Below, in pieces: positions 11,335-63,837 of a stretch of 64,000 nt of DNA. The stretch comes from Candidatus Moranbacteria bacterium RIFCSPHIGHO2_01_FULL_55_24. GTDB lineage: Bacteria > Patescibacteriota > Minisyncoccia > Moranbacterales > UBA1568. The stretch lies in assembly GCA_001786575.1 (NCBI GenBank), contig MFRW01000001.1, positions 22,179 to 86,178 on the forward strand, read 5' to 3'. Made by a program: the position numbers and the translations under genes. Each line of letters begins with the position of its first letter. The first letter of the stretch is position 1. The notes under the pieces were generated by a model, which searched no databases, was not told the origin of the DNA, and saw only the letters and a list, made by a program, of their open reading frames with translations.

Positions 11335-12639
11335 ATGAGTATTTTATTTGAAAGCCTGGCAAACGCATTTTCTTTTTTCGGCAACATGTTTTCTGTTGCT
11401 GCTGATCTGTGGTTCGTCCTCTTTCCTCCGGCCCTCTACGCCGTTTTCAAGATTCTCTGGCTCCCGCACGTGTGGGGGCATTACGGTTCCAAGATCAAAT
11501 GGGTGCTCTTGGAGATCATCCCGCCTCGCGATATCGAGGCGAGCCCGCTTCCGATGGAGTCGATCTTCGCTGGCCTTGCCGGCGTAAGCAAGGGTTCGAC
11601 GATAGCAGAAGAGTGGGTCAAGGGTGAATTCCCGACAGCCTTCTCTCTGGAAATCGTGAGCCAGGAGGGCAATGTGCATTTCTATATCCGCACCCAGACC
11701 GCCTTCCGCAACCTCGTGGAGGCGCATTTCTACGCCCAGTATCCGAATGTCGAAATCGTCGAAGCCGACGACTACGTGAACACCGTGCCGCGCACCCTGC
11801 CGAACAAGGACTGGGATCTGTGGGGTACGGATTTTGAATTGGTGAAGCCCGACCTCTATCCCATCAGGACTTACAAATACTTCGAAGAATCCGTGACCGG
11901 CAAGATGATCGATCCCTTGGCCGGTCTCATAGAGACTATGGGCAAAGCGGGTCCCGGCCAGCATATGTGGCTCCAGTTCATCATCGCTCCGGAAAAGGAG
12001 AAATGGTACGCGACTGGCAAGGCGACGGTCGATGAGTTCCTGGGAAAGAAGAAGAGCGAAAAGCACGGAGTCTTTATTCGTCTTCTGATCGATCTCAAGG
12101 ATATTTTCACGAATATTTTTTCCGGTATGCTCGGGAAAGAAATGACGCATACTGTTCTTGAAGAAGAAAAGACAGATGAAAACGGCGTTCCGATCGAGTC
12201 GAAGCTCACTTTCGGGCAGCGCGAAGTCCTGAAGGCGCTGGAAGAAAATCTCGGCAGGATCATGTTCAAGACCAAGATGCGCTACCTCTATGTGGGCCGG
12301 CGCGAAACCTTCAACAAGCCGACCGGCGTTTCCGCTCTCATCGGCGGCATCAAGCAGTTCAATGACCAGAATCTGAATAGTTTCAAGCCGAATGATGATA
12401 CCAAGACCGATGCCAAGTATCTCTTCGTCGAGCCGCGCCTCCGCTACCGCCAACGCCGCATTTTCCGCCGCTACGTGAGCCGCGATTCGGATCCGCAGTT
12501 CAACCGTTTCGAGTTGAGCACGACAGAGCTCGCAACGATTTTCCATATCCCGGATATGTCCGTGGTGGCTCCGTCGCTCACGCGTGTGGCTGCGAAGCGC
12601 GGAGGTGCCCCGTCGAACCTGCCGATCCAGAGCGAATAA
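11335..12639 (+). CDS. Membrane protein (N-terminal 2 TM) with large soluble domain, partner of the downstream T4CP-like ATPase
   Basis: 434 aa. Hydrophobic N-terminus FFGNMFSVAADLWFVLFPPALYAVFKILWL. No recognisable catalytic motif. 33-nt spacer to the next gene on the same strand. Confidence 0.55.
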   Translation: MSILFESLANAFSFFGNMFSVAADLWFVLFPPALYAVFKILWLPHVWGHYGSKIKWVLLEIIPPRDIEASPLPMESIFAGLAGVSKGSTIAEEWVKGEFPTAFSLEIVSQEGNVHFYIRTQTAFRNLVEAHFYAQYPNVEIVEADDYVNTVPRTLPNKDWDLWGTDFELVKPDLYPIRTYKYFEESVTGKMIDPLAGLIETMGKAGPGQHMWLQFIIAPEKEKWYATGKATVDEFLGKKKSEKHGVFIRLLIDLKDIFTNIFSGMLGKEMTHTVLEEEKTDENGVPIESKLTFGQREVLKALEENLGRIMFKTKMRYLYVGRRETFNKPTGVSALIGGIKQFNDQNLNSFKPNDDTKTDAKYLFVEPRLRYRQRRIFRRYVSRDSDPQFNRFELSTTELATIFHIPDMSVVAPSLTRVAAKRGGAPSNLPIQSE

Positions 12640-12672
12640 TCACAAGAATACACATTCACATTTTCTTTTCCT

Positions 12673-14631
12673 ATGCACGCTTCCCCGCAAAACGAAATCG
12701 CTTTTTTCGCCAAGACGAACTTCCGTAACCAGGATCGCGTTTTCGGTATCAAGTTGGATGACCGGCGCCGGCACATGTACGTGATCGGAAAGACCGGCAT
12801 GGGCAAGACCAATCTTTTGGAAAACCTGGCGATCCAGGATATCCAGAACGGGCACGGTATCGCCTTCATCGATCCGCACGGAGACACGGCGGAAAAGCTC
12901 ATCAAGGCTATCCCGTCTTCGCGCATCAACGATGTCATCTATTTCAATCCGGCCGATCAGGACTTTCCGATCGCGTTCAATGTGATGGAGAAAGTGGATC
13001 CCGAATACCGTCATCTGGTCGCCTCCGGCCTGGTCGGAGTCTTCAAGAAGCTCTGGGCGGAATCCTGGGGACCGCGTCTCGAATACATCCTGCGCAATGA
13101 CATCATCGCCCTTCTCGAGTATCCCGGAAGCACGCTCCTCGGCGTGACGCGCATCCTCGTCGACAAATCCTACCGCGAACGGGTGGTAGAGAAGATCACC
13201 GACCCGGTGGTACGCAGCTTCTGGGTGGATGAATTCACCAAGTGGAACGAGCGCGTGCTCCAGGAAGTCATTTCTCCGATTCAGAACAAAGTAGGTCAGT
13301 TCCTCTCGAGCTCGCTTATCAGAAATATCGTCGGCCAGACGGCATCTTCTTTCGATGTGCGCAAAGTCATGGATGAGAAGAAGATTCTCATCATGAACCT
13401 CTCGAAGGGCCGCATCGGCGAGGACAACAGCGCGCTTCTTGGCGCTATGATGATCACCAAGATCCAGCTGGCCGCCATGAGCCGCGTAGATATCCCGGAG
13501 GAGACCCGTAACGATTTCTACCTCTACGTCGATGAGTTCCAGAACTTCGCTACCGAATCGTTCGCGAACATCCTGTCCGAGGCCCGCAAGTACCACCTGA
13601 ACCTCATTCTTGCGAACCAGTATGTGAGCCAGATCGACGAGAAAGTGCGCGATGCGATCTTCGGAAATGCCGGTACGATCATCTCGTTCCGCGTGGGAGC
13701 GATGGATGCGGAGTTTTTGGAGAAGGAATTCGAGCCGGTCTTTATGGCGAACGATATCATCAATCTTCCCAAGTATCAGATCTACCTCAAGCTCATGATC
13801 GACGGTATCGCAGGAGACGCCTTCAGCGCGACGACGCTTCCGCCGATCAAGCTGGAAGACGCCGGGAATGAAGACAAGATCATCCAGGGTTCGCGCGAAC
13901 GCTATGCCTCGAAGAAGGATGATGTCGAAGATAAGATCCGCCGCTGGAGCGGCATGCTGACAGCCGAAGAGCGCCAAGCGCTTATCAAGCCGGTGAATGC
14001 GCCTCGGAGAGAAGCGCCAGTTATCACGAGGAAAGCCCCTCCGAAACCAGCGCCGGTCTCGAAGAAGGAACAGGTGCCGCGTGCGGAAGCTCCTCGAGCT
14101 CCTCAAGCCGCAGAAGTCCTCGCAGAAAGACCGCGAGAAGAAGCGGAGCTGCCTCCTCTGGAAGAGGAGAAAAAGCCGGCAGAAGTGCCGGCGGAGATAG
14201 AGGAAGTGCCTGAAGAGGAACCTGGAGCAGAAGCTGCCGTCCCTCGTACCCTGTACGATACGGTCTGTGCCACGTGCGGCACGCCTATCCAGGTACCATT
14301 CAAGCCGGATGGCAAGCGCCCGACATTCTGCAAGGATTGCCTGCGGGATTACCAGCGCGCCACCGCCAAGGCCCGTCTCGAAGAAGAACGGAAGCACGGA
14401 GCGGGCGAAGGCCAGGGGATAAGGACCGGACAACGGAACTCTATAAAAGAGCAGCCGGAACGCCGACTGGAGCGCAGGGTGTATGCTACGGATGAGAGGC
14501 CGGTTTCTCTCGCCCAAGTGCAGCATATCGGCCCCAAGAAATTCAAGAGTCTGCGAAAGCGCCCGGAAGTGAACCTTTCCGAGCTCCGCGAGCTCATCCA
14601 CACGACGCAGAAAAAGAATGGAGAAAGCTGA
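12673..14631 (+). CDS. VirD4/TraD/TraG (type IV coupling protein)-like P-loop ATPase, soluble, with Pro/Glu-rich linker and C-terminal 4-Cys zinc ribbon
   Basis: Walker A VIGKTGMGKTNLL followed by IDPHGD (T4CP DPKGE-like). Motif YFNPADQDFPIAFNV. Walker B FYLYVDEFQNF. Sensor ARKYHLNLILANQ. Tail EEAELPPLEEEKKPAEVPAEIEEVPEEEPGAEAA then CATCG...VPFKPDGKRPTFCKDC. Confidence 0.65.
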   Translation: MHASPQNEIAFFAKTNFRNQDRVFGIKLDDRRRHMYVIGKTGMGKTNLLENLAIQDIQNGHGIAFIDPHGDTAEKLIKAIPSSRINDVIYFNPADQDFPIAFNVMEKVDPEYRHLVASGLVGVFKKLWAESWGPRLEYILRNDIIALLEYPGSTLLGVTRILVDKSYRERVVEKITDPVVRSFWVDEFTKWNERVLQEVISPIQNKVGQFLSSSLIRNIVGQTASSFDVRKVMDEKKILIMNLSKGRIGEDNSALLGAMMITKIQLAAMSRVDIPEETRNDFYLYVDEFQNFATESFANILSEARKYHLNLILANQYVSQIDEKVRDAIFGNAGTIISFRVGAMDAEFLEKEFEPVFMANDIINLPKYQIYLKLMIDGIAGDAFSATTLPPIKLEDAGNEDKIIQGSRERYASKKDDVEDKIRRWSGMLTAEERQALIKPVNAPRREAPVITRKAPPKPAPVSKKEQVPRAEAPRAPQAAEVLAERPREEAELPPLEEEKKPAEVPAEIEEVPEEEPGAEAAVPRTLYDTVCATCGTPIQVPFKPDGKRPTFCKDCLRDYQRATAKARLEEERKHGAGEGQGIRTGQRNSIKEQPERRLERRVYATDERPVSLAQVQHIGPKKFKSLRKRPEVNLSELRELIHTTQKKNGES

Positions 14632-14673
14632 AAGAAACGCCCGTAGTTGTTCGGAGTGGCCGGTTTTGGTATC

Positions 14674-14793
14674 ATGGAGGATATGAGTTTCAGAAAATGG
14701 CACAAACGAGCCTACACCTTCTGGGTAGGGATCTCTATTCTCGTGGTGGTTTCCATGGTGGCGTTCCTTTTCGCGCCGTTCTTTATGTACTAG
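14674..14793 (+). CDS. Possible small membrane protein (36-39 aa)
   Basis: ORF MEDMSFRKWHKRAYTFWVGISILVVVSMVAFLFAPFFMY immediately upstream of the ftsB-like gene. One TM helix. Not in the ORF track because shorter than 60 aa. Confidence 0.3.
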   Translation: MEDMSFRKWHKRAYTFWVGISILVVVSMVAFLFAPFFMY

Positions 14794-14799
14794 GAGCCT

Positions 14800-15189
14800 A
14801 TGAAGCCCAAAGACTGGTACATGCGCCTCTTCGTAGCAGGCCTTCTGGTCCTGATCGGCTGGGCGCTCTATGTGTCTTCCAAACAGCTGGAGAGGAATAA
14901 GCGGATCGCACAGGAAGTGAACACGCTCCAGGAAGAGGCGGAAAAGATCAGGAAGGAAAACGAGACGCTTTCGGAGAGGATCGGGTACTTCTCTTCGCAG
15001 GAATTCCGCGAACAGGAAGCCAAGAAGAAATTGGGTCTGAAGAAGCCGCAAGAGACAGTCGTAGCGATCAAAGAAGAGGTTCCGGAGGAGCAGGGACAAG
15101 ACGCGGTTTCCGAGTCTCCGAAGGAGGCATCCAAGAGTCCGTCGGAAATTTATATGAAATGGTGGCAGCTTTTTTTCGCAAAAAACTAA
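14800..15189 (+). CDS. Septum formation initiator (FtsB/DivIC-like)
   Basis: N-terminal TM (LFVAGLLVLIGWALYV) followed by coiled coil LERNKRIAQEVNTLQEEAEKIRKENETL. GGAG RBS upstream. Confidence 0.55.
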   Translation: MKPKDWYMRLFVAGLLVLIGWALYVSSKQLERNKRIAQEVNTLQEEAEKIRKENETLSERIGYFSSQEFREQEAKKKLGLKKPQETVVAIKEEVPEEQGQDAVSESPKEASKSPSEIYMKWWQLFFAKN

Positions 15190-15208
15190 CTTCTCAAACG
15201 TCAAATGT

Positions 15209-16273
15209 ATGGACATAAAGAAGGATGTCTTGCAGAAGGTCAAAGTGAAATGGGAAACGGCGGCATACGCGCTTCTTGCGGTCGTCGTCTTCGTATTCGC
15301 GGCGAGCCTCATCGCTGTGTACGCGGTACCGCGCGGCACCTATCCGCTTATCGAACGCTTCTCCAAAGCGACTCCATACCCGGTTTCGATCGTCGGCATG
15401 AAAAACTTCATCAGCGAGCGCGAGCTTTCCGGAAATATGCGCTCTATCCGACGTTTCTATGAAGCCCAGGATTTCTCGCAGATCGGGCTACGGGTAGACT
15501 TTTCGACCGAAGAAGGCCAGAAACGCTTCCGTATCCGCGAGAAAGAAGTCCTAAACAAGATGATCGAAGACGCCGCGGTAGTGGAGATCGGCAAGAAGTA
15601 CGGTATCACTATCACCCAAGAGATGGCTCGCGAGGGCGTGCGCCGCTCGCTCGACGAATACGGCAACAGCGATACTGTGAAACAGGATTTGGAACGCCTC
15701 TACGGGTGGAGCTTGAGTGATTTCGAAGAGAAGATCGTATTGCCGAGCCTGTATGAAGAGAAACTCCAAGAAGTGTTCGCCAAGGAAAACGAAGCTTCAG
15801 ACGTCGCGAAGGAAAAGATCCAGAAAGCCGACCAGGCGCTGCGGGACGGCAAGCCTTTCCGGGAAGTAGCGATCGAATATTCGGACGGACAGACCAAGGA
15901 GAAAGGCGGGGAGCTGGGATGGTTCCAGATTTCAGATCTGACTCCCGAACTCCAGAAGCCGGTATCGATCCAGAAAGTCGGTGCTCCGGGGAGCATTATC
16001 GAAAGCGCTCTCGGGTACCATATCGTCATAATCGAAGAGACGAAAAGCGAAGACGGGGAGATGTTCTATCGCTTGAGTCAGGTATTCGCCCGCAAAGCTA
16101 CCTTTGCAGATTGGATGACAGAGAAGATGAAGGGCGTGTCGATTTTCGTCCTGTCTCCGGAATACCGCTGGAATGCCGAAGAAGCGCGGGCCGAATTCAG
16201 GCGCCAGGAGATGCGAGAGTTTGAGGAGGAAGTCTACAAGAATACGAACGGCGATGCCCTTTTTTTCTTCTAG
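15209..16273 (+). CDS. Peptidyl-prolyl cis-trans isomerase, parvulin type (PrsA/SurA-like), membrane-anchored
   Basis: N-terminal TM, chaperone-like region, then parvulin domain (FREVAIEYSDGQTKEKGGELGWFQ ... GYHIVII). Confidence 0.75.
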   Translation: MDIKKDVLQKVKVKWETAAYALLAVVVFVFAASLIAVYAVPRGTYPLIERFSKATPYPVSIVGMKNFISERELSGNMRSIRRFYEAQDFSQIGLRVDFSTEEGQKRFRIREKEVLNKMIEDAAVVEIGKKYGITITQEMAREGVRRSLDEYGNSDTVKQDLERLYGWSLSDFEEKIVLPSLYEEKLQEVFAKENEASDVAKEKIQKADQALRDGKPFREVAIEYSDGQTKEKGGELGWFQISDLTPELQKPVSIQKVGAPGSIIESALGYHIVIIEETKSEDGEMFYRLSQVFARKATFADWMTEKMKGVSIFVLSPEYRWNAEEARAEFRRQEMREFEEEVYKNTNGDALFFF

Positions 16274-16290
16274 CAGGAGCTTTCCAAGAA

Positions 16291-16317
16291 AAAGACCCTT
16301 GATAAGGGTCTTTTTTC
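16291..16317 (+). terminator. Intrinsic terminator
   Basis: AGACCCTT/AAGGGTCT stem with a 3-nt loop, followed by TTTTTT. Confidence 0.75.
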
Positions 16318-16329
16318 GGCCTTTTTTGA

Positions 16330-16356
16330 TTAGCACTCTCACATAGAGATTGCTAA
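16330..16356 (+). promoter_or_regulatory. CIRCE-like inverted repeat (HrcA operator-like) upstream of clpB
   Basis: TTAGCACTC-N9-GATTGCTAA versus consensus TTAGCACTC-N9-GAGTGCTAA (one mismatch), 55 nt upstream of the clpB ATG. Confidence 0.55.
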
Positions 16357-16410
16357 TTTTTTATTTTCATGATATTTTTCAAGTGGAAAAAATATCGAAA
16401 TATTTTGAGT

Positions 16411-19050
16411 ATGAATATCAATAAATTCACTACCAAGTCGCAGGAAGCCCTGCGCATGTCACAGGAGATCGCTTTGTCGCGGAGCAATCCGCAGATGGAC
16501 ACGGCGCATCTTCTCTACGCGCTCCTCTTGCAGGAAGAATCCATCGTCCCGGTAATCGTGGGCAAGCTGGATGTCGATATCGAGGACATCAAGGGAGCGA
16601 CGCTTACGGAGATCGAGTCCTTTCCGCAGGCAGAGTCGGGAGCGGTCGGCCAGCTGTATCTTTCGCAGGCCCTGGCCCAGGCGTTCGGCGAAGCGGAGAA
16701 GCAGATGGAGAAGATCGGCGACAGTTTCGTATCGACGGAGCATCTGCTCCTGGCGCTTCTTTCAGTGCCGAGCAAGGTACAGAAGATCCTGGAAGAAGCG
16801 GGCATCAGCTATGACCGAACGCTTCAGATCATGACCGAAGTGCGCGGCGGGCAGAGAGTGGAAAGCCAGGCGCCCGAAGCGACGTATCAGGCTCTCGAAA
16901 AATACGCAATCAACCTGACCAAGGAAGCGCGCGAAGAGAAGCTCGACCCGGTAATCGGACGCGACGAGGAGATCCGCCGGGTGATGCAGGTGCTTTCGCG
17001 CCGTACCAAGAATAACCCGGTCTTGATCGGAGAGGCCGGGACCGGAAAGACGGCTATCGCCGAAGGTCTGGCCCAGCGCATCGTTTCCGGAGATGTGCCG
17101 GAAAATCTGAAGAACAAGGAGATCATCGCGCTCGATCTGGGAGCGCTCCTCGCTGGGGCGAAGTTCCGCGGCGAGTTCGAAGAGCGCCTCAAGGCGATTC
17201 TGAAGGAAGTGGAACGCGCCGCAGACCGTTTCATCCTCTTCATCGACGAGCTCCACACGCTCGTCGGAGCGGGAGCGACTGAAGGGTCGCTCGACGCGTC
17301 GAATATGCTGAAGCCGGCACTCGCGCGCGGCAAGCTGCGCACGATCGGCGCGACCACGCTCAAGGAATACCAGAAATATATCGAGAAAGACGCGGCGCTC
17401 GAACGCCGCTTCCAGCCCGTCTACGTCTCCGAGCCGTCCGAAGAGGATGCGATCGCCATCCTGCGCGGCATCAAGGAGAAATATGAGCTCCATCACGGCG
17501 TCAAGATCACGGATGACGCGCTCATCGCAGCCGTCAAGATGTCGCGGCGCTATATCACCGACCGCTTCTTGCCGGACAAAGCAATCGACCTCATCGACGA
17601 GGCAGCATCGCTCCGCCGCATGGAGATCGATTCGCTTCCGACCGAGCTGGACCAGCTGGAACGCAATATCCGCCGCATGGAAATCGAGAAACGGGCGCTC
17701 GAGAAAGATAGCGACAAGGGCAGTAAGGCGAAGATCAACGCTCTGGAGCGCGAGCTTTCCGAATTGAAAGAGCGTTCCAAGAAATTGATGCTCCAATGGA
17801 AGTCCGAGCGCGATCTCATCATGGCGATCCGGAAGCATAAGGAGGAGATAGACCGGTTCCGTTCAGAGGCGGAAATGGCCGAGCGTCGGGGCGAATTGGA
17901 TCAGGTCGCCGAGATCCGCTACGGGAAGATCCCGAATCTGGAAAAGGAAATCAGTACAGAGGAGAAAAAAATGGCTCGGCTCCAGAAGACGAGTTTTCTC
18001 TTGAAGGAGGAGATCGCTGAAGAGGATATCGCACAAGTGGTTTCCCGCTGGACAGGTATCCCAGTCGCGAAGATGCTCGAGAAAGAGACCGAAAAACTCG
18101 TCCATTTGGAGGCAGAATTGAAGAAACGAGTGGTCGGGCAGGATGAAGCGATTCATGCGATCGCGAATGCTATCCGCCGCTCCCGTGCCGGCCTCTCGGA
18201 AGAGACGCGGCCGATCGGATCCTTCATCTTCCTCGGGACGACCGGCGTCGGGAAGACCGAACTCGCCAAGGCTTTGGCCGAGGTGCTTTTCGACGATGAG
18301 AAATCGCTGGTACGGGTGGATATGAGCGAGTACATGGAATCGCATTCGACGGCGAAGCTCATCGGTTCGCCGCCGGGATACGTGGGTTATGAGGAGGGTG
18401 GGCAGCTGACCGAGACGATCCGGCGCCGCCCATACAGCGTGATCCTCTTCGATGAGATCGAGAAGGCTCATCCGGATGTCTTCCATATCTTCCTTCAGAT
18501 TCTGGACGACGGCCGCCTGACGGATGCCAAGGGACGGACAGTGAACTTCAAGAATACCGTCATCATCATGACTTCCAATGTCGGATCGGAAATCCTCGTA
18601 CGTTCCCGGGACCTGGGATTCAAGGAAGAGAGCAGGAAGAATGTTGCCTTGCGCGAGACCGAGATCCGCGAGCGGATCGAAGGGGCTCTCCGCGAGACGT
18701 TCCGCCCGGAATTCTTGAACCGTATCGATGAGACGATCATCTTCCATCCGCTCTCGCCGGAAGTGCTTTCCGGGATCGTGGATCTTCAGATCGAGATTCT
18801 GAAAAAGCGTTTCGAAGAGCGGGAAATCTCCATTACCTTCGAGCCGAGCGCGAAGCGGTACTTGGCCAAGCAGGGCTATGATCCCCTCTATGGCGCCCGG
18901 CCGCTCAAGCGGGTCATCCAGAACGAAGTGCTCGATCCGCTCGCGCTTGAAATTTTGGAGAAAAAGGTTCAAAGTGGGGATAGCGTCCGTGTCACTCTCG
19001 CGAAAGGCAAGCTGATTTTCAAGAGCGAAAAGAAAGGCCGGACCCGCTAA
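16411..19050 (+). CDS. clpB: ATP-dependent chaperone ClpB
   Basis: N-domain, D1 ([15 protein letters not shown]; FILFIDELH), long coiled-coil middle domain, D2 ([15 protein letters not shown]; [10 protein letters not shown]; sensor 2 GARPLKR). Start moved to the ATG at 16411 (MNINKFT). Confidence 0.9.
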
Positions 19051-19078: not shown

Positions 19079-19834
19079 ATGGTCTTCCATTTCTCCGTTT
19101 TCTTCTGGTCAGTAGTGTTCTTCCTCGGACTCCAAGGGGTAATACTGAACCCGATCACGCTCACCTGGAGCTGGTACCTCTTCGCAATCATCCCGCTCCT
19201 GGTGGTGGCCTTTCTGGCGGCGAACCGTCTGACGGGGAAGTATGCCGATGCCTATCTTCCCGGCCTCCTGGCAGTCTCGTCGCCGATTCTCCTCTCGTTC
19301 GTCGATCATCCGACGGAGCAGCAGATTTTCGTCTTCCTATGCTCCGGGATGTTCTATTTCGCGCTCCTCGGGATCTACCGCCTCCGCTATGCTCCGAATG
19401 ACAAGACCGCACAGGCGATTTTGAGCACCGCCGCTATGGCGGCGCTTTTCTTTTTCTTTTCCGGTATCTATGGGTTCTACCTGAACTTCTCTTTCCCGCT
19501 CTGGGGGATGATGCTCATTTTCTTCCTCGGGACCGCTCTGACGAGCTACGAGACGTTCATCGGCGTGGAGCGGGAAAACAAGCGGCGGGTGAAAATCTAC
19601 AGCGTGCTCCTCGGGCTCATGATGGGGGAGCTTGTCTGGATCATGAGCTTCTGGCCGTTCGGTTCGCTGACGACCGGAGCGATCGCCCTCATCTTCTACT
19701 TCATGGCCTGGGATATCGCTTTCGATACCTTCCGGAAGACGCTCTCGCTGCGGCGCGCCGTCATCCGCATGTTCCTCTTCTCGCTTTTGATCATTTTGCT
19801 CCTGGTGAGCTCGCCCTGGAGAATCCTGGTCTAG
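19079..19834 (+). CDS. Hypothetical polytopic membrane protein
   Basis: 251 aa with about 7 hydrophobic segments. No motif recognised. Confidence 0.5.
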   Translation: MVFHFSVFFWSVVFFLGLQGVILNPITLTWSWYLFAIIPLLVVAFLAANRLTGKYADAYLPGLLAVSSPILLSFVDHPTEQQIFVFLCSGMFYFALLGIYRLRYAPNDKTAQAILSTAAMAALFFFFSGIYGFYLNFSFPLWGMMLIFFLGTALTSYETFIGVERENKRRVKIYSVLLGLMMGELVWIMSFWPFGSLTTGAIALIFYFMAWDIAFDTFRKTLSLRRAVIRMFLFSLLIILLLVSSPWRILV

Positions 19835-19892: not shown

Positions 19893-20414
19893 GTGGGTTC
19901 TTTGAAACACAAGAAAATCATACTACCCGGCGCTATAAGCGAGCCGGAGCCTACATGTGTCGATTATCTGCTTTCGAAGATCAACCCCAAAGCGCGAATC
20001 AGCGATCTCATACGGGAGGCAAACTTCGAGTGGAATCTCACACCCGTGCCTTTCGTGGCCAGGCGGCGGTTGGTGCGCGAGATGCTTTACTATGGCCAAC
20101 CTGATTACGTGACGCTCGTGTTTTTTCCGCATGACATGTTCTTCGATCGCATCGCACCGCGTATCGAGTCTCTCGGGTATCGCTTCGCAGTCCTTCCCGA
20201 GCTTCTCCAGTTCGCAATCGATCATCCTGAAGTGCAGAACAGCCACCCGGTAGCAAGTCTCGATTACAAGTCAAAGTCTCGCCACGGCCCTTATAAGTAC
20301 CCTGTCCTCACGCGGAGGACCGATGGGCGGCTTATCGAGATGCGGGTCCCTGGAAAGAGACCGTGGAGCAAAGCGACCGGCTATCTATGTGTCCGGCAGG
20401 GAGAAATCCCATGA
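19893..20414 (+). CDS. Hypothetical protein
   Basis: GTG at 19893 or TTG at 19902, just after an AAGGAG RBS. No recognisable domain. Confidence 0.45.
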   Translation: MGSLKHKKIILPGAISEPEPTCVDYLLSKINPKARISDLIREANFEWNLTPVPFVARRRLVREMLYYGQPDYVTLVFFPHDMFFDRIAPRIESLGYRFAVLPELLQFAIDHPEVQNSHPVASLDYKSKSRHGPYKYPVLTRRTDGRLIEMRVPGKRPWSKATGYLCVRQGEIP

Positions 20415-20424
20415 ATCCCTACTG

Positions 20425-20461
20425 AAGCCCTGTAGAATATTCTTCTGCAGGGCTTTTCTCT
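20425..20461 (+). terminator. Intrinsic terminator
   Basis: GAAGCCCTG ... CAGGGCTT stem followed by TTTCTCTT. Confidence 0.6.
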
Positions 20462-20495: not shown

Positions 20496-21689
20496 TTGCA
20501 TATGAAGGCACCCCTTATTACAAAAAGCGCCCTTTTCATCCTCTTTCTCGGGGCAGTTTTCTTCGTGGGAGGCTTGGGCGGTATCGTCCTGGACCGCTAC
20601 GCCATACCGAAATTGGCAGCTCTTCCGAGCTTGAGCGGCAACCCGCTCCTCAAGAAGGCGACCGAACGCATCACTATCATCAATAAGACGGAACAGGTGG
20701 TGATCCGCGAAGATGATTCAGTAGAGAAGATCATTTCCCAACCGGCGACGACCGTGGTGAATATCATCTCCGTCTTCGATGCGCCCGTGGCCAAGAACGG
20801 CGAAACCGCGACGGAAGTAGCCGGTACGGAAGCGGCAGTAACGCGCACCGGCGTGCTTTTGACCAACGACGGGCTCATCGTTACATACGCGAACCGGGTA
20901 CCGGAGACGGAAGGCGTGCGCTACTCGGTCCTTCTTTTCGATGGCAAGAACTACGGCGCCCGCTTTGTCGGCTATGATACGCTGACGAACCTGGCATATT
21001 TCCACTTGGAGGAGAATCTCTCTGTTCCCGCTATCGCGCTTGCGAACTCCGATGATGCGCGTACCGGGAAGCGTCTTATCGCCATCGGGAACAGTTTCGC
21101 TGAATACCAGAACCGCATAGCTCTCGGCGTTTTAGGAAACATCAACCGCACCTTCAATCTCGCGGGAAAGTCAGTCTCTTCTTCCGAGAAATGGGAGGGA
21201 GTCTTTGAAATGGATTTTGCGAATGCTCGGAACTTCGTAGGAGGACCGGTCATCGGCTTTAACGGCGAGATGGTCGGCCTTGTCGGCCTGCTTTCGATCG
21301 ACAATCAAGAGGAGACTTTCCTCATTCCGGCGAATGTCGTCCGGAGCTCTTCCGAACGCGCCCTCTCCGGCAACCTGGAGAAGCGCGCCAATCTCGGCGT
21401 CTATTACCTGCCCATTACCAAGGCCTACGCATTGGGCCAGGGGATAAGCCGCGATCGCGGGGCGCTCGTCTACTCCTCTTCGGGGAAGACCGGTCTCGCC
21501 GTCCTCGACAACTCTTCCGCTATGCGCGCGGGTATCCGTGCCGGCGATATCATCACGGCCGTGGATGGCACCGAGATCAATCTCGACACGCCGCTCCCGG
21601 AAGTCCTGAACCGCTACAGCCAGGGCGACACGATCGAACTCACCCTGCTGCGGAACGGAGCCGAACTGAAGCTTCCGGTGAAGTTCTAA
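20496..21689 (+). CDS. HtrA/DegP-like trypsin-fold protein with C-terminal PDZ domain; catalytic triad H/D/S replaced by N/N/V (predicted inactive)
   Basis: N-terminal TM. Aligns to DegP with GYVVTNNHVV -> GLIVTYANRV, SDIALI -> TNLAYF and GNSGGALVNLNGELIG -> NFVGGPVIGFNGEMVG. PDZ motifs (GALVYSSSGKTGLAVLDNSSAMRAGIRAGDIITAVDG). Confidence 0.7.
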   Translation: MHMKAPLITKSALFILFLGAVFFVGGLGGIVLDRYAIPKLAALPSLSGNPLLKKATERITIINKTEQVVIREDDSVEKIISQPATTVVNIISVFDAPVAKNGETATEVAGTEAAVTRTGVLLTNDGLIVTYANRVPETEGVRYSVLLFDGKNYGARFVGYDTLTNLAYFHLEENLSVPAIALANSDDARTGKRLIAIGNSFAEYQNRIALGVLGNINRTFNLAGKSVSSSEKWEGVFEMDFANARNFVGGPVIGFNGEMVGLVGLLSIDNQEETFLIPANVVRSSSERALSGNLEKRANLGVYYLPITKAYALGQGISRDRGALVYSSSGKTGLAVLDNSSAMRAGIRAGDIITAVDGTEINLDTPLPEVLNRYSQGDTIELTLLRNGAELKLPVKF

Positions 21690-21711: not shown

Positions 21712-21744
21712 ACCGCGCCCCTTTTCCGGCGCGGTTTTTCTTTT
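21712..21744 (+). terminator. Intrinsic terminator
   Basis: ACCGCGCC/GGCGCGGT stem with an 8-nt loop, followed by TTTTTCTTTT. Confidence 0.75.
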
Positions 21745-21794: not shown

Positions 21795-23033
21795 ATGCGA
21801 CAGTCACGCCTGTTTACTCGGACCAAGAAAACTGCCCCCAAAGACGAAGTGAGCAAGAACGCGGAACTCCTGATCCGCGCTGGTTTCGTGCACAAAGAAA
21901 TGGCCGGAGTGTACGATTACCTGCCGCTCGGCCTGCGGACGCTCAACAAGATCATCGGGATCATCCGTGAAGAAATGAACGGTCTCGGCGCCGAGGAGCT
22001 CCTCATGAGTTCGCTTCAGAGGCCGGATGTCTGGAAGGCGACTGACCGCTGGGATAGTGAGAAAGTAGATGTCTGGTTCAAGACGACACTTCAGAGCGGC
22101 TCCGAGCTCGGCCTGGCGCTGACCCATGAAGACCCGCTTACCGATCTCATGCGCTCCTTCGTCTCTTCGTATCGCGACCTGCCGTTTTCTGTCTACCAGT
22201 TCCAGACGAAGTTCCGGAATGAGATGCGGGCCAAGTCCGGCATCATGCGCGGAAGAGAATTCATCATGAAAGACCTGTATTCATTCGCGAGGACCGAGGC
22301 AGAGCTCGATGCCTTCTACGAAGAGGCGGCTCTGGCCTATGAGCGCATCTTCGCGCGCGTGGGGCTCGGAGAAGAGACCTACAAGACGTTCGCAAGCGGC
22401 GGTATTTTCAGCAAGTACAGCCATGAGTTCCAAACGCTTTGCGAAGCCGGGGAAGACATCATCTATGTCGATGAAGAGAAACGGATCGCAATCAATGAGG
22501 AAGTGTTCACTGACGAAGTCCTCCAGGAGCTCGGTCTCGACAAAGAAAAGCTGGTCCAGAAGAAAGCCGTGGAAGTCGGCAACATCTTCAAGCTCGGCAC
22601 GCGTTTCTCGGAGCCGCTCTCGCTTACGTACAAAGATGAGCAAGGGAAGGACCAGATGGTCATCATGGGCTCCTACGGCATCGGTCCCGGTCGGGTGATG
22701 GGAGCTATCGTAGAAACCCATGCGGATGACAACGGGCTGGTCTGGCCGGAGGCAGTCGCGCCGTTCCGCGTGCACCTCCTTTCTCTCGGTGCGGACGAGA
22801 AAGCGACGGAAATCTATGAGGCTTTGGAAAAGGCTGGCATCGAAGTGCTCTATGACGACCGGGAAGCGAGCGCCGGCGAGAAATTTGCCGATGCGGATCT
22901 CCTCGGAATCCCGTACCGGGTCGTCATCGGCAAACGCTCCCAGGAGAGCGGCCATGCCGAGGTGAAGAAGCGTACCGAGAGCGCTGCCCAAGAAGTGGCT
23001 CTCGAAAGCCTCGTCTCTTATTTCCAGTCATAA
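21795..23033 (+). CDS. proS: Proline--tRNA ligase (class II, short form without editing domain)
   Basis: Motifs MRQSRLFTRT, FRNEMRAKSGIMRGREFIMKDLYSF (motif 2) and GSYGIGPGRVMGAIVE (motif 3). C-terminal anticodon-binding domain. Upstream in-frame ATG at 21771 is less likely. Confidence 0.9.
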   Translation: MRQSRLFTRTKKTAPKDEVSKNAELLIRAGFVHKEMAGVYDYLPLGLRTLNKIIGIIREEMNGLGAEELLMSSLQRPDVWKATDRWDSEKVDVWFKTTLQSGSELGLALTHEDPLTDLMRSFVSSYRDLPFSVYQFQTKFRNEMRAKSGIMRGREFIMKDLYSFARTEAELDAFYEEAALAYERIFARVGLGEETYKTFASGGIFSKYSHEFQTLCEAGEDIIYVDEEKRIAINEEVFTDEVLQELGLDKEKLVQKKAVEVGNIFKLGTRFSEPLSLTYKDEQGKDQMVIMGSYGIGPGRVMGAIVETHADDNGLVWPEAVAPFRVHLLSLGADEKATEIYEALEKAGIEVLYDDREASAGEKFADADLLGIPYRVVIGKRSQESGHAEVKKRTESAAQEVALESLVSYFQS

Positions 23034-24212: not shown

Positions 24213-24728
24213 ATGCAAGCTCTCCAATCGGAATCGGCGGAGCGTCTCCGCTCGATATCATTTCTGCTCGGCAGGAGCGTAATCGGTTGCCAGGGTCTCG
24301 CGCATAATATCCGCACCAGCGGATACGGCCTTTCTGATCAAGCGGAAGCGCTCGTGTATGCGAATACCGAATGGTTTTATCTGGCAGATAATCGGAAATT
24401 CGCAGCGTTCCGGCTCATGGAACTCGGTTGCCGCAAGAAAATACCCTGGACAGAGCTCGAAGGGTATGCGGATGCGAACCATCTGGAGTACTGTCCGCTG
24501 GAGGGAGTGCTCCTCTATCGGCTTGAAAGACGCTCCGAGTTTGGCAGCGATGATTTCGTGACTGCATACATGCGGCCGCAGCTTCTCGCAGGCCGTCCGG
24601 CAGTATTGGAACTTTACTCGAAGGTCGACGGTTCGCAGGCCTTGCATGGCCTTCAGACCGAGCATGTCGATACGCTCGAGCTTGAGCCGCAAGATGCCGT
24701 GCTGTTCATGCTTCCCTACTACAGTTGA
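24213..24728 (+). CDS. Hypothetical protein
   Basis: 171 aa. GGAGGAAAACAG RBS upstream. No domain recognised. Confidence 0.45.
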   Translation: MQALQSESAERLRSISFLLGRSVIGCQGLAHNIRTSGYGLSDQAEALVYANTEWFYLADNRKFAAFRLMELGCRKKIPWTELEGYADANHLEYCPLEGVLLYRLERRSEFGSDDFVTAYMRPQLLAGRPAVLELYSKVDGSQALHGLQTEHVDTLELEPQDAVLFMLPYYS

Positions 24729-52835: not shown

Positions 52836-54236
52836 ATGTCGAAATTTAAAGATGGCCTCAAAGGCTTGGGAACGCTCCCAGCGCTTTTGATCGTCGTGGT
52901 GTCTTTCGGAGGATTTCTCGCAGCCGCGTCCATCGTGACGCACAACCAGCTGGCTTTGTCGCCGGTTTCTTTGGCGAAAGACGGCGAGGATGATGGCGGT
53001 GACAGCGAAGATAGCAAAGATAGCGAAGATGAAGACAAAGATGAAGATAAAGACGAGGACAAGGATGAAGATAAAGACGAAGATAAGTCTTTAGAGAAGG
53101 AAAGAGAAGCAGCCAAGAAGCAGGCCGAGCGTGAGCGCGAAGCCGCGAAGAAGAAGTCCAATAGCGGCCAAGGCGGCGATAACCTCTCTCTAGACGAGAA
53201 TGAAACGGAAGACGAGCTGGATGATGTAGAAGAAGACGAGCTGGATGATGAGCAACAGGCCGAAACAGAGAAGGCCATGTACAAGGATCGTACTAAGACT
53301 CTCGAGAAGCTGAACGAAGAGATCTACGAGGCCGAGAAGAAGATCATGGAAGCCAAGGCCGAAGGGGTCAATGTGAGCAAGGCGCTTGCAACTCTCGGAC
53401 TTGCCAAGGCGAAGATTGCCGAAGTAGAGCGAGCATTCAGCACATCCGACCTCGAAGCAGCGAAGCGTCTCGCCAAGGAAGTGAAGAAACTCGCGCATTT
53501 CGCGCGCAACGAGGATTTTCATGACGCCGAGAAACTTACCGAAGACCTTTCGAAGATCGCCAAGCGCATCTCGCAGGCTCGCGGCAAGATCGTGCTGTAT
53601 GAATCGCTTGGTGGTGACGGATCGGCATTTGCGAACTCGCTGAACAATCTTGAAGCGGAATTCAATGTCACCAAAGCGACTATCGCCGCGGGCGGAGACG
53701 GATCTCTTTCCGCTATTGATTCTCTGGATACCTTGGAGCGCAAGATAAAGTCCGTAAAGAGCAGCGTGGAGAACTCCATCTACGCTCTCGGCGGTACGGA
53801 TGAGGAATACGACGACGATTATAAGGACGAAACAGAGGACCTCATGGCAGAACTCGAAGATGTGGCGGAAATTGAGGGCGAGGACCTCGGCAAGCAGGTG
53901 CGCACTATCGCTCGTGCCCAGGGGATTTCGGCCAGCAAGGTAGGTGATACGGTAGAAAGTATCGATAACCGCAATGCTGCGCTTCAGTTCCTCTTCGGCA
54001 CCAAGAAGAGCGAGATCGAAAAATTGGAACAAGAAATTGCTGCCAACAAGGCGCGTGTCGATCTGCTCATCCAGGCTGCAGCCAAGGTCGAGGATCCAGA
54101 TGTGAAGCAGATCCTCCTAGACCAGGCAGAAGTTCTTAAGCAGGAGACCGCGAAGCTCGAAACCTTCGTTTCCGGTCAGAAGAACCGTTTGAGTCTCTTC
54201 GGCTGGCTCCTCAACCTGAACCCCGGCCAGAATTAA
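52836..54236 (+). CDS. Signal-anchored coiled-coil protein with (DEDK)n acidic repeat
   Basis: TM LLIVVVSFGGFLAAASIV, then DSEDSKDSEDEDKDEDKDEDKDEDKDEDK, then extended heptad-like Ala/Lys/Glu-rich coiled coil. Confidence 0.55.
   Translation: MSKFKDGLKGLGTLPALLIVVVSFGGFLAAASIVTHNQLALSPVSLAKDGEDDGGDSEDSKDSEDEDKDEDKDEDKDEDKDEDKSLEKEREAAKKQAEREREAAKKKSNSGQGGDNLSLDENETEDELDDVEEDELDDEQQAETEKAMYKDRTKTLEKLNEEIYEAEKKIMEAKAEGVNVSKALATLGLAKAKIAEVERAFSTSDLEAAKRLAKEVKKLAHFARNEDFHDAEKLTEDLSKIAKRISQARGKIVLYESLGGDGSAFANSLNNLEAEFNVTKATIAAGGDGSLSAIDSLDTLERKIKSVKSSVENSIYALGGTDEEYDDDYKDETEDLMAELEDVAEIEGEDLGKQVRTIARAQGISASKVGDTVESIDNRNAALQFLFGTKKSEIEKLEQEIAANKARVDLLIQAAAKVEDPDVKQILLDQAEVLKQETAKLETFVSGQKNRLSLFGWLLNLNPGQN
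53025..53087 (+). repeat. 12-nt tandem repeat (GAWGAYAARGAY) x about 5 encoding DEDK repeats
   Basis: gaagatgaagacaaagatgaagataaagacgaggacaaggatgaagataaagacgaagataag. Confidence 0.7.
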
Positions 54237-54262
54237 GCCAAAGACAGGAGAAAAGCTGAAAA

Positions 54263-54285
54263 AGAGGGAGAAATCCCTCTTTTTG
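54263..54285 (+). terminator. Intrinsic terminator
   Basis: AGAGGGA/TCCCTCT stem with a 4-nt loop, followed by TTTTT. Confidence 0.7.
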
Positions 54286-54323
54286 CTTGATTAAAGATCC
54301 ATTGAAATGTTTACGATATAATA

Positions 54324-54351
54324 TTGACAAATAGAGAAATTCGGGATATAT
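54324..54351 (+). promoter_or_regulatory. Consensus sigma70 promoter TTGACA-N17-TATATT driving the radical-SAM operon
   Basis: -35 at 54324-54329, -10 at 54346-54351, in an AT-rich spacer. Confidence 0.6.
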
Positions 54352-54356
54352 TCAGC

Positions 54357-54375
54357 TGTCAGAAACATTCTGACA
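54357..54375 (+). promoter_or_regulatory. Operator-like perfect palindrome TGTCAGAA-ACA-TTCTGACA at the predicted transcription start
   Basis: 8-3-8 inverted repeat starting 6 nt downstream of the -10 hexamer. Confidence 0.5.
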
Positions 54376-54417
54376 ACTTTTCTTTAACAAATTAGCCGAT
54401 AAAGAAGGGAAGTCAAA

Positions 54418-55500
54418 ATGTCTCATCAAGCTTTGTTCTGGAGGGTTGTGATGCAACCAACTTCCTTCTGTAATTTGAATTGTAGCTATTGCTATTTGAA
54501 GTACAGAAGAAGTAGCTATAAGATGAGTGTCACTGTGGCTCAAAGTGTGGCGCAGTCCGTCTTTCAAGCGGGTAATCCGGTAAGAATATTGTGGCATGGC
54601 GGTGAGCCATTGAGCTGTGGCAAGAAGCACTTCCAATCGCTACTTACGCCTTTCCAAGGCCTATGCGAAGCTCATATGGCCTCTCATTATATCCAGACAA
54701 ATGCAACTCTCATCAATGAAGAATGGTGCAGATTCTTCATTAACAATAATGTCCATGTGGGGGTAAGCATAGATGGGCCTGACTGGGCTAATAGAAATAG
54801 AACCGACTGGTCAGGAAGATCGTCGTTTAGCAGAATAATGGCTGGGGTATCATATTTAAAAGAATTTGATATACCATTTAGTGTTATCTGTGTTATCGAT
54901 GAATCAAGCTTGGAGAAGGCTGAAGAAATCTATACCTTCTTCTGCAATCTTGGATGTAGCGAGGTTGCATTTAATATCGAGGAGAAGCTTGGAATACATG
55001 AAACAAGTGCTCCGGATGATTCCAGACGTATAACAAACTTCTGGGCAGAACTGTTTAGATATTGGAAGGAAAGGCCGAATATCCCGATAAGGGAGGTGGA
55101 CAGGACTTTGCGTTGGATAGCAGCTCAAGAGGGTCCACAAGGAGATCCAGTAATAGAAGATTTCTTCCCTAGCGTTGCATATGATGGGAAGGTAGTATTG
55201 CTTTCCCCAGAGTTTCTCGATGTTTCCTGCAAGCTTTATTCTGATTTTTGTGCAGGAAATGTTTTGGATAGCACGTTAAATCAAATATGCGCCAAGGCAA
55301 AAAATCTTCAATACATTCAAGATTACTTGGAAGGTTTAAGAAAGTGCAAATCGGAATGCGAATATTTTGCATTCTGTAAGGGAGGCCAGGCAGCGAGTAA
55401 ATATTTTGAACATGGTACTACATGTGCCACGGAAACGGTATACTGCCGCAATTCAGAACAAAGGCTGCTTGAGGGAGTTCTTCAGTCAATAGAAGCTTGA
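54418..55500 (+). CDS. Radical SAM enzyme with C-terminal SPASM domain, anSME-family (peptide/protein-modifying maturase)
   Basis: N-terminal CNLNCSYCY (CxxxCxxC). Motifs ILWHGGEPL, IQTNATLINEEW and VGVSIDGP align with anaerobic sulfatase-maturating enzyme. C-terminal cluster CKSECEYFAFCKGGQ...C...C. No sulfatase gene in the window. Confidence 0.8.
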   Translation: MSHQALFWRVVMQPTSFCNLNCSYCYLKYRRSSYKMSVTVAQSVAQSVFQAGNPVRILWHGGEPLSCGKKHFQSLLTPFQGLCEAHMASHYIQTNATLINEEWCRFFINNNVHVGVSIDGPDWANRNRTDWSGRSSFSRIMAGVSYLKEFDIPFSVICVIDESSLEKAEEIYTFFCNLGCSEVAFNIEEKLGIHETSAPDDSRRITNFWAELFRYWKERPNIPIREVDRTLRWIAAQEGPQGDPVIEDFFPSVAYDGKVVLLSPEFLDVSCKLYSDFCAGNVLDSTLNQICAKAKNLQYIQDYLEGLRKCKSECEYFAFCKGGQAASKYFEHGTTCATETVYCRNSEQRLLEGVLQSIEA

Positions 55501-55530
55501 TGTTCTCTAATCGAAAGGAGGTGAGTTAGA

Positions 55531-55713
55531 GTGAGTGATTTGCAGAGCAGGTTGGTCAATAAAAGTTCTATGGCTACGGAAATCCTGGTTAAAACAGGAT
55601 ATGCCGAGGCCACAGAATTCTCTGCTGATGCCAATACTAGCCATGTAAAGGCTTTCAGCAAAGGCTGGGATAAGGGCTGGGGCAAGAGTGGCGGTCCTGG
55701 ACCGGATAGGTAA
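55531..55713 (+). CDS. Candidate RiPP precursor peptide (60 aa) with C-terminal KGWDKGWGKSGGPGPDR
   Basis: GTG start 10 nt after an AAGGAGG RBS, 30 nt downstream of the rSAM stop. Lys/Trp/Gly-rich C-terminus with a WGK motif. Followed by a strong hairpin. Confidence 0.45.
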   Translation: MSDLQSRLVNKSSMATEILVKTGYAEATEFSADANTSHVKAFSKGWDKGWGKSGGPGPDR

Positions 55714-55718
55714 AACTA

Positions 55719-55757
55719 GAGGGCTGGAGCTATAATATAGCTACAGCCCTCATTTTA
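55719..55757 (+). terminator. Stem-loop (attenuator/terminator) immediately after the candidate precursor gene
   Basis: AGGGCTG...CAGCCCT outer stem enclosing palindromic AGCTATAATATAGCT, followed by TTTTAAT. Confidence 0.55.
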
Positions 55758-55765
55758 ATGTATTT

Positions 55766-56578
55766 ATGGATAAAACTATCATTTCAAGGCAATTAAAAAA
55801 TGCCTATAAAAGACTAAATCACAAGGAGTATAAATCACCCTATAAGTACAAGCTTAAAAAGGGAAAACAGATACTCTATTTTTTCGGTTCCCGACATTCT
55901 TATAATCCAAAGGATGTGCAATTTGTTGAACTTCGGGACTTTTGGGATGATTTTCAAAAGAACGTTTCTGGCCCATATGAAGTTCTTATAGAAGGAGGCA
56001 AGAGGAGTAATAAATTTAAGGATGAAATTGAAGCAATAAAAAAGGAAGGAGAATTAGGCTTAGTGTATTTTTTAGGAAAAAAGGCTGGCGTAAAAATTGA
56101 TTCTCCCGATCTTTCTGATAGAGATTGGTTCAATGGTCTAGCGAAGATATTTAATAGGGACTTCGTAGCTTATTATGATTTTATTCGGGTTGCTTATCAG
56201 TGGAACAGGACTGACAAAAGCATATCTTTTAAAAAATATGCAAGCAGTTTCCTTAAGCAGAATGAGAAAAGTGTTCATTGGAAGGATTTTGATTTTTCTT
56301 TAAAAAATATGCAGCGTATTCATAAGGAGCTCTTTAAGACGCCTTTTGATGAGAACGATCAAAATTTCCTTGTATCTTTGCTTGATGTAAATTCGGATAA
56401 GTCGGTTATTAATGAAATTTCACGTTACGATGACGAGGGATTTCGCGATTTGAAAATTATCGACAATATCTCCAAAGAATGGAGCAAGAAATTAAGCCTT
56501 TTTATAATTTTTGGTGCCCCGCATGCCATTGTTATGAGAGACATTTTAAAGAAGATAGTTGGAGGAGGCGCTAAATAA
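55766..56578 (+). CDS. Hypothetical protein, very low GC (about one-third by eye), Lys/Phe/Asp-rich
   Basis: 270 aa. No recognisable domain. Composition unlike the rest of the chromosome. Confidence 0.45.
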   Translation: MDKTIISRQLKNAYKRLNHKEYKSPYKYKLKKGKQILYFFGSRHSYNPKDVQFVELRDFWDDFQKNVSGPYEVLIEGGKRSNKFKDEIEAIKKEGELGLVYFLGKKAGVKIDSPDLSDRDWFNGLAKIFNRDFVAYYDFIRVAYQWNRTDKSISFKKYASSFLKQNEKSVHWKDFDFSLKNMQRIHKELFKTPFDENDQNFLVSLLDVNSDKSVINEISRYDDEGFRDLKIIDNISKEWSKKLSLFIIFGAPHAIVMRDILKKIVGGGAK

Positions 56579-61693: not shown

Positions 61694-62095
61694 ATGCTTA
61701 ATTTGAAAATCCAGACCGTGCCCGATGATCAGCAGCGCTACAATACCGTAGGCGACTACTACCTGAATGACAAAGGGGAACGCATCTTTGTGATTTCGGA
61801 TATGCGAGACTGGCGCTACGAGATTCTGACAGCCGTCCACGAGCTGGTGGAGAGCGCGCTCTGCAAGCATCGGGGCGTCACAGATGAACAGATAGACGCC
61901 TTTGATCTCGAGTTTAGCGAGAAAAGAGCTACAGGAGACGTGAGCGAGCCGGGGGATTCTCCGGAAGCCCCATACTACAGGGAACACCAATTCTCCAATA
62001 AGATAGAGAAGATGCTGGCGGATGAGCTGAAAGTGGATTGGGAACAGTACGGGAAAACAGTGGATACGCTCATGAGAAATACCGAAGTCATCTGA
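61694..62095 (+). CDS. Hypothetical protein
   Basis: 133 aa. No domain recognised. Confidence 0.4.
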   Translation: MLNLKIQTVPDDQQRYNTVGDYYLNDKGERIFVISDMRDWRYEILTAVHELVESALCKHRGVTDEQIDAFDLEFSEKRATGDVSEPGDSPEAPYYREHQFSNKIEKMLADELKVDWEQYGKTVDTLMRNTEVI

Positions 62096-63835: not shown

Positions 63836-63837
63836 GT

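Follow-up and report, generated by a model that had tools for sequence, protein, structure and literature searches.

The 64,000-nucleotide stretch of contig MFRW01000001.1 from Candidatus Moranbacteria bacterium RIFCSPHIGHO2_01_FULL_55_24, hereafter the window, carries at 20502..21689 (+) a gene for an HtrA/DegP-like protein in which the whole catalytic triad is replaced. This dead HtrA-like protein (dead HtrA) is a long-fixed pseudoprotease of the HtrA family under purifying selection, and decay is excluded. Its invariant partner is a gene for a polytopic membrane protein of the DUF5656 family, which is the most informative new fact and was not visible to the author of the preliminary description, a first reading of the window. 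We consider it probable (about 0.6) that the dead HtrA is an extracytoplasmic, non-catalytic binding, holdase or adaptor protein, which acts with DUF5656 in envelope protein quality control.

Loss of the catalytic triad in an HtrA-fold protein

The open reading frame (ORF) runs uninterrupted over 20496..21689 (+), just as it had been described, and comprises 397 amino acids (aa) if counted from the TTG at 20496. The true start is probably the ATG at 20502 (395 aa plus stop), which is used by the identical database protein P0001 and by the gene calls at the identical loci L089-L091 in three assemblies, and residue numbers refer to this 395-aa form. The N-terminal membrane anchor proposed earlier is found as a single transmembrane (TM) helix at aa 11-29 (20532..20588, +), with a Kyte-Doolittle value of 2.52 in a 19-residue window and a helix at 3-39 in the AlphaFold2 (AF2) model. 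K2 and K8 ahead of this helix imply an N-in, C-out orientation. The helix supplies the localisation signal that belongs to an HtrA family member, the topology itself being predicted.

Pfam Trypsin_2 (PF13365) matches aa 118-262 with E 4.5e-14, and the trypsin-like (HtrA) protease-fold domain without catalytic triad at 20847..21281 (+) is recovered by the DegP alignment, Foldseek and hhalign as well. The PDZ domain (21459..21683, +) is matched by PDZ_2 at aa 322-396 (E 3.8e-12) and also by PDZ_6, aligns with PDZ1 of DegP, and has a predicted local distance difference test score (pLDDT) of 84-94. Just upstream of it, the carboxylate-binding loop NLGV (aa 297-300; 21390-21401, +) aligns with ELGI of DegP, in agreement with the intact PDZ domain of the preliminary description. 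No TauE or other extra Pfam domain was found in the protein. Among solved structures E. coli DegP is the best match (E 1.7e-24), and the structural check that had been suggested turned out positive: in Foldseek the AF2 model matches DegP, DegQ and DegS with E about 1e-21 and probability 1.00. The overall pLDDT of this model is 70.7, the barrels and the PDZ domain being good and the loops poor. By fold and PDZ domain, the protein is a homologue of HtrA/DegP (MEROPS S1C).

The position of the catalytic His is occupied by N131 (codon 20892..20894, +), that of Asp by N163 (20988..20990, +) and that of Ser by V246 (21237..21239, +), after which GGP is kept. The relatives carry Glu (90 of 120) or Asn (23 of 120) at the first position, Asn (117 of 120) at the second, and Val (86 of 120) or Ile (31 of 120) at the third. 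The earlier claim of an unambiguous alignment at all three sites holds for Asp and Ser, which are placed alike in every alignment, but not for His: MAFFT and profile-profile hhalign arrive at N131, the His-to-Asn replacement as originally read, whereas pairwise HMMER shifts a gap and arrives at R132. Under both alignments alike, the catalytic-His segment contains no His. None of the four alignment methods used restores H/D/S; hhalign, run between the dead and the active family, gives probability 100% with E 2.4e-40. The hallmarks of the active family, TNKHV, DP..D.A and IQTDAAINPGNSGGPL, are degenerate in the dead HtrA, where GGP alone remains, and the oxyanion, S1 and 'TDAAIN' elements of the active relatives are degenerate too. 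The protein is incapable of Ser-His-Asp catalysis. Nowhere in the dead-family alignment is there a His or Cys column conserved to at least 90%, which argues against a relocated catalytic site. All HtrA equivalog models in NCBIfam (Do/HtrA/DegP/DegQ/DegS) leave the protein far under their curated cut-offs, for instance TIGR02037 (Do/HtrA) with 131.6 bits versus a cut-off of 416.2. Failing the catalytic feature and the curated cut-offs, it should therefore not be filed as a serine endopeptidase.

Family extent, conservation and selection

The first protein search listed 120 full-length relatives with 56-73% identity, mostly metagenome proteins, and those with names are proteins from metagenome-assembled genomes (MAGs) of Moranbacteria/Patescibacteria, annotated as "S1C family serine protease". 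The triad is missing from every one of more than 120 relatives in Moranbacteria/Patescibacteria MAGs, and about 60 more clusters at 50% identity, the most distant of them roughly 28% identical, are likewise without His and Ser. In the exhaustive search, which covered 1.84 billion representatives, proteins with intact H-D-S first turn up at about 31% identity. The named members of the deep clade are Moranbacteria or Patescibacteria. A scan of species representatives confirmed a relative in 156 genomes, the best 80 of which are almost all MAGs of Moraniibacteriota/Patescibacteria. Related loci were located with the close-family alignment (A1), not with the more divergent dead-clade alignment (A2). 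As to database labels, the family members P0007-P0115 are called "S1C family serine protease", "serine protease Do" or "trypsin-like peptidase domain-containing protein", and none of them has the triad.

The close-family alignment contains 49 invariant and about 100 nearly invariant columns, and the window copy is off the consensus at only 2 of the 149 columns conserved to at least 90% (family median 3.5). Mean major-residue frequency is 0.89 both for a pre-protease motif, RITIINKTEQVVIREDDSVEKIISQPATTVVNI (aa 56-88; 20667..20765, +), and for aa 176-210 (PAIALANSDDAR...AIGNSFAEYQNR), and 0.88 for an L3-like loop at aa 211-236 (21132..21209, +) with the near-invariant SSEKWEGVFE; the 12-mer at aa 227-238 is the second most conserved of the protein. 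Conservation is lower in the segments of the former His and Asp (0.74) and of the former Ser (0.70), and at the triad positions themselves the wider dead clade shows freely varying residues. The strongest selection sits outside the old active site.

We then compared orthologous genes, as the preliminary description had recommended. Most of the fetched genes (81 of 84) are intact full-length ORFs of 375-420 aa, and the remaining three run off a contig end or are partly covered; no stop or frameshift, which would indicate decay, was found among the 84. The ratio dN/dS (omega) of the dead HtrA is 0.03-0.11 for pairs with dS of 0.2-1.0, apart from one pair at 0.20-0.25; dS is saturated (above 2 or undefined) when the window is compared with its nearest sequenced relatives, so omega was taken from closer family pairs. 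In a gene-by-gene comparison over five genome pairs, omega is 0.03-0.09 for the dead HtrA, 0.02-0.16 for the co-resident active HtrA, 0.014-0.05 for DUF5656, 0.03-0.13 for a peptidyl-prolyl isomerase (PPIase) and 0.04-0.10 for prolyl-tRNA synthetase (ProRS), so that the dead HtrA is equal to or below its active paralogue, PPIase and ProRS. The earlier view of a retained non-proteolytic paralogue rather than a decaying pseudogene is borne out by these values together with the family-wide replacements and the few deviations of the window copy. What was found is, as in MamO-like pseudoproteases, a degenerate active site in a selected and retained fold.

The DUF5656 partner and the active paralogue

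In all 73 related loci with at least 1 kb of upstream DNA (73 of 73), a DUF5656 gene lies directly upstream of the dead HtrA on the same strand, with a median gap of 78 bp. The pair is seen besides in L083, L084, L086, L087 and L088. In the window, the product of this gene (19079..19834, +) has 251 aa and is a polytopic membrane protein with 8-9 TM helices, as judged by Pfam PF18900, a TM scan and an AF2 model (pLDDT 84.4, nine helices). It is 100% identical to P0395 (A2808_03105) from a Moranbacteria MAG of the Rifle aquifer, where the locus is found again on a 269-kb scaffold. Its invariant motifs, FYLNFSFPLWG and WPFG, face opposite the Arg/Lys-rich loops, and by the positive-inside rule their face is predicted to be the outside. 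DUF5656 is a membrane-protein family restricted to the candidate phyla radiation (CPR). No match was found for it in the PDB by sequence or for its AF2 model in Foldseek (best E 0.38, TM-score at most 0.37), and the literature library that was searched contains no mention of DUF5656 and no work treating the triad status of HtrA in Patescibacteria.

The usual order of the cluster is DivIC - PPIase - active HtrA - (ClpB) - DUF5656 - dead HtrA - (ProRS), the genes in brackets being variable. A second, catalytically intact htrA, whose existence elsewhere in the genome had been raised as a question, is present in most related loci: in 52 of the 56 loci spanning the interval between a TM-anchored PpiC-type PPIase and (ClpB-)DUF5656, a separate intact HtrA is encoded there, on the same strand and a few kb upstream of the dead gene, but none lies within the 64-kb window itself. 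All complete active copies (57 of 57) keep TNKHV / NDIA / GNSGGPL, and active and dead paralogues share only 25-29% identity. For instance, the closest relative with context, P0004 (73% identical; L088), shows the order active HtrA - DUF5656 - dead HtrA - ProRS - GT4, the last being a family 4 glycosyltransferase (GT4) gene.

The active copy is gone from the interval in four lineages, namely the window, L012, L017 and L032. In the window, the TM-anchored PpiC-type PPIase (PrsA/SurA-like; 15209..16273, +), recognised by Pfam Rotamase, a TM helix at 22-40 and synteny, runs straight to the ClpB disaggregase (16411..19050, +), which takes the place that in most relatives belongs to the active HtrA, either alone or together with ClpB; the 96-bp gap (16274-16368) contains a hairpin at 16288-16316. 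Among the best 120 matches to the active HtrA of L088 (to E about 1e-146), none is on the 635,596-bp or 269,150-bp contigs without an adjacent copy. The PPIase-adjacent HtrA, called A-type below, is lost or relocated in the window lineage. Despite the missing adjacent active HtrA, the window dead copy is a typical family member.

Evolution of the clade

In a neighbour-joining (NJ) tree with 100 bootstraps, which is distance-based and has weakly supported deep nodes, all sequences that lack the full triad fall into a single clade (bootstrap 73; core 87), which lies within the active HtrAs of CPR type, and the co-resident active copies make up a separate one (bootstrap 100). The nearest intact relative, P0168 (H-D-S), is sister to the dead clade at only 39%. 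It resembles this clade in its TM and juxtamembrane architecture and in its DUF5656 neighbour, which it follows in L083. In L087 a diverged DUF5656 precedes P0175, a further active relative, and P0208 (E-D-S; L084) has the same DUF5679-DUF5656-HtrA-Wzz-like synteny as P0168, while the deep dead P0177 is preceded by ClpB and a DUF5656 homologue. A family hidden Markov model confirmed the upstream genes of these relatives as DUF5656. The pairing arose before the triad was lost, since two active proteins, P0168 and P0175, have DUF5656 in front of them as well. The basal loci also show a tiny DUF5679 gene before DUF5656 and Wzz/GNVR-like genes after HtrA.

The motif RITIINKTEQVVIREDDSVEKIISQPATTVVNI is common to P0168 and P0208, not to the PPIase-adjacent active copies, and is therefore specific for the DUF5656-adjacent type. 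Based on the tree, the shared architecture and the DUF5656 neighbourhood, we distinguish two lineages: an A-type, which is PPIase-adjacent and always active, and a DUF5656-adjacent B-type, which is dead in Moranbacteria but has stayed active in certain other CPR bacteria. Several basal members of the dead clade lack His and still have GNSGGP (P0208 with E-D-S, P0184 with S-E-S and P0222 with Q-N-S), and their residues suggest that His was lost first within the triad. These three proteins may be evolutionary intermediates, or they may still be enzymes whose activity is residual or altered.

Proposed function and alternative explanations

In the function that we favour, the single N-terminal TM helix would anchor the dead HtrA in the cytoplasmic membrane, with the HtrA fold and the PDZ domain outside, as in the monoderm-type HtrA topology. 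It has kept the scaffold of an HtrA, Gly-Gly-Pro as the backbone of the old oxyanion loop, the highly conserved L3-like loop and the PDZ domain with its intact carboxylate-binding loop. The PDZ domain and the cleft may bind unfolded or C-terminal segments of exported proteins and leave them uncut, and the B-type-specific juxtamembrane motif may contact the conserved external face of DUF5656. The protein would thereby be part of an envelope folding and quality-control cluster with the PrsA-like PPIase, the canonical active HtrA and ClpB, and it possibly hands clients to the active HtrA or tunes it. The specific function (chaperone, holdase or regulator) is one that we infer.

Several facts weigh against this reading. 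With a pLDDT of 70.7, the AF2 model reaches no more than moderate confidence, and it is poor in two of the conserved segments, the pre-protease motif and the L3-like loop. DUF5656 has no relative of known function by sequence or structure, so the partner gives no mechanistic handle. The cluster holds unrelated genes too (ProRS, GT4), and in compact CPR genomes some of the adjacency may be historical. Furthermore, an ORF of 170-173 aa without Pfam family (19893..20414, +; called as 19902-20414, 170 aa) lies between DUF5656 and the dead HtrA, an insertion only in the window lineage that widens the gap to 667 bp versus the median of 78 bp, and together with a terminator-like hairpin it parts the two genes and makes their co-transcription doubtful here. 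This hairpin (20424..20456, +; 14-bp stem) is upstream of the dead HtrA, and a second one, GC-rich and with a T-run, follows 23 bp past the stop codon (21712..21735, +). The flanking terminators of the preliminary description are thus there as hairpins, but both are pattern matches only, and the number of such hairpins in the region (11 found, 9.2 expected) is not above chance.

That the gene is a decaying pseudogene, or an alignment or annotation artefact, could be argued from the loss of the active-site motifs and from scores far under all HtrA equivalog cut-offs (131.6 bits vs 416 for TIGR02037). The selection and conservation data refute this, and we give it practically no credence: omega is 0.03-0.11, the gene is intact in 81 of the 84 fetched loci and carried by 156 species-representative genomes, 49 columns are invariant with about 100 nearly so, and independent assemblies give an identical gene model. 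It is also very improbable that the protein is still a hydrolase which works through a non-canonical site, such as the invariant Ser228 with the near-invariant Lys230 (SSEKWEG) or other conserved Ser, Glu or Asp residues. Candidates for such a site do exist, with S79, S183, S228, K230, E232, D147 and D159 invariant or nearly so and the SSEKWEG loop in the second most conserved 12-mer, but the family has no conserved His or Cys, its oxyanion, S1 and 'TDAAIN' elements are degenerate, conservation is comparatively low in the segments of the old active site, and the triad positions vary freely in the wider dead clade. We know of no precedent for a relocated catalytic site in the HtrA fold.

The main rival, which is possible but not likely, assigns the dead HtrA to the active HtrA as its dedicated subunit, with a regulatory or structural task, through mixed trimers, higher oligomers or allosteric activation. 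The L3 loop mediates inter-subunit and PDZ communication in HtrAs, and the L3-like loop is near-invariant here; 52 of 56 loci, L088 among them, also encode an HtrA with full H-D-S a few kb upstream, and all 57 complete active copies are intact. MamO/MamE (PMC4794232) and DEG7 (PMC3194040) are precedents for such a subunit. However, four lineages have no adjacent active copy and show no relaxation of the dead one, which weakens this explanation; in particular, the 64-kb window has no active copy and its dead copy is as conserved as any. The paralogues are moreover only 25-29% identical and belong to long-separated clades, and the invariant partner is DUF5656 (73 of 73) rather than the active HtrA (52 of 56). 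The strength of this pairing, universal and older than the loss of the triad, would also suit an accessory ectodomain of a DUF5656 machine outside proteostasis (transport, envelope biogenesis or surface-polymer handling), with the HtrA scaffold as lid or receptor. Basal loci adjoin Wzz/GNVR-like, glycosyltransferase or LytR-CpsA-Psr genes, GT4 is downstream in the window, and the MamO scaffold gained an unrelated function, metal binding (PMC4794232). We regard this as unlikely, for the DUF5656-paired P0168 and P0175 keep a full protease site, so that the ancestral job of the pair involved proteolysis, while the cluster of Moranbacteria has many genes for folding factors (PPIase, HtrA, ClpB) and DUF5656 has no recognisable transporter or enzyme fold.

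A wider form of the envelope quality-control role may be put forward as a speculation, which we hold with considerable doubt. DUF5656 and the B-type HtrA could constitute an unrecognised two-protein envelope module of CPR bacteria, whose HtrA half in Moranbacteria has turned into a non-catalytic client receptor or gate for DUF5656. It might decide the fate of exported and surface proteins and, where an active HtrA is present next to it, license that enzyme in a manner similar to MamO and MamE.

Other features of the window

The gene after the dead HtrA is ProRS (21795..23033, +), a frequent downstream neighbour (29 of 76 loci), and a GT4 gene is also found downstream in the window. Upstream of the PPIase, a synteny block at 11335-15189 comprises DUF8128 (11335-12639), a TrwB/TraG-like coupling ATPase (12673-14631) and DivIC (14800-15189), and it travels with the PPIase-HtrA cluster across Moranbacteria. 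Many third-party annotation (TPA) MAG records with the Moranbacteria-type cluster (L004, L006, L007, L009, L013-L016 and others) are titled "uncultured Bdellovibrionales bacterium", which is almost certainly a taxonomic mislabel.

A second ORF of about 170 aa without Pfam family is located at 24213-24728 (171 aa), and the 173-aa and 171-aa ORFs are not truly similar (E 0.003 over 19 aa). Three antisense ORFs, 12640-15339 (-), 16762-17838 (-) and 17863-18972 (-), overlap the TrwB-like gene or ClpB and have no Pfam match; these long ORFs look like artefacts of GC-rich composition, not genes. GC content is 0.42 at 54001-56000 and 0.38 at 62001-64000 versus about 0.56 for the rest of the window, and the two low-GC segments may be horizontally acquired or otherwise atypical.

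Comparison with known systems

HtrA pseudoproteases are already established, among them MamO and further examples from magnetotactic bacteria, and a conserved pseudoenzyme is in itself not very surprising. MamO, a dead HtrA of magnetotactic bacteria, promotes the proteolysis by MamE and has gained new functions (PMC4794232). It resembles the present case in several respects: duplication was followed by loss of catalysis, a degenerate HtrA-fold protein is under selection with an active paralogue in the cluster of most genomes, and the dead domain is tied to a polytopic membrane module, fused as TauE in MamO and encoded by the separate DUF5656 gene here. Unlike the dead HtrA, in which all three residues are replaced, MamO keeps His and Asp and has Thr for Ser. 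It relies on a surface di-His metal site and the fused TauE, neither of which is found in the dead HtrA, and it lacks a PDZ role to set beside our intact PDZ domain; the two proteins, ours being from CPR, also belong to unrelated lineages and cellular processes.

Engineered catalytically inactive HtrA has a chaperone-like benefit in B. subtilis and E. coli (PMC10715036). Inactive DegP and B. subtilis HtrA share with our protein the fold, the protease-PDZ organisation and the extracytoplasmic location (B. subtilis HtrA is also TM-anchored), and their chaperone-like activity is the one proposed here. They are engineered point mutants, whereas the loss described here is natural, ancient and complete, with H, D and S as well as TDAAIN and GNSGG affected; besides, DegP has two PDZ domains, against one in the dead HtrA.

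Several plant Deg proteins are HtrA pseudoproteases (PMC3473262), and the degenerate second protease domain of DEG7 mediates oligomerisation (PMC3194040). They are likewise natural HtrA members retained with mutated triads, but are eukaryotic and organellar and for the most part have lost a single residue or are truncated. Several of them may be real pseudogenes, and none is accompanied by a conserved gene for a membrane protein. Also comparable are the A-type and active B-type HtrAs of CPR bacteria (P0168 and P0175 for the latter), with full-length homology at an hhalign probability of 100%, and the active B-type shares the TM helix, the juxtamembrane motif and the DUF5656 neighbour. These active proteins keep TNKHV / NDIA / GNSGGPL, whereas the window protein, 25-31% identical to them, is without all three.

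Significance

By labelling these proteins serine proteases, databases credit hundreds of Moranbacteria/Patescibacteria genomes with a larger proteolytic repertoire than they have, and the annotation should change. A natural, lineage-wide and strongly constrained dead HtrA offers a clean way to separate the chaperone or adaptor role from proteolysis, which is usually attempted with engineered Ser-to-Ala mutants. Besides, the graded series from active B-type through His-less to fully dead proteins provides material for the study of pseudoenzyme origin, and the invariant pairing is the first functional association for DUF5656. The ultra-small CPR bacteria rely on the cell surface for their episymbiotic lifestyle, and for this reason their envelope proteostasis machinery is of general interest.

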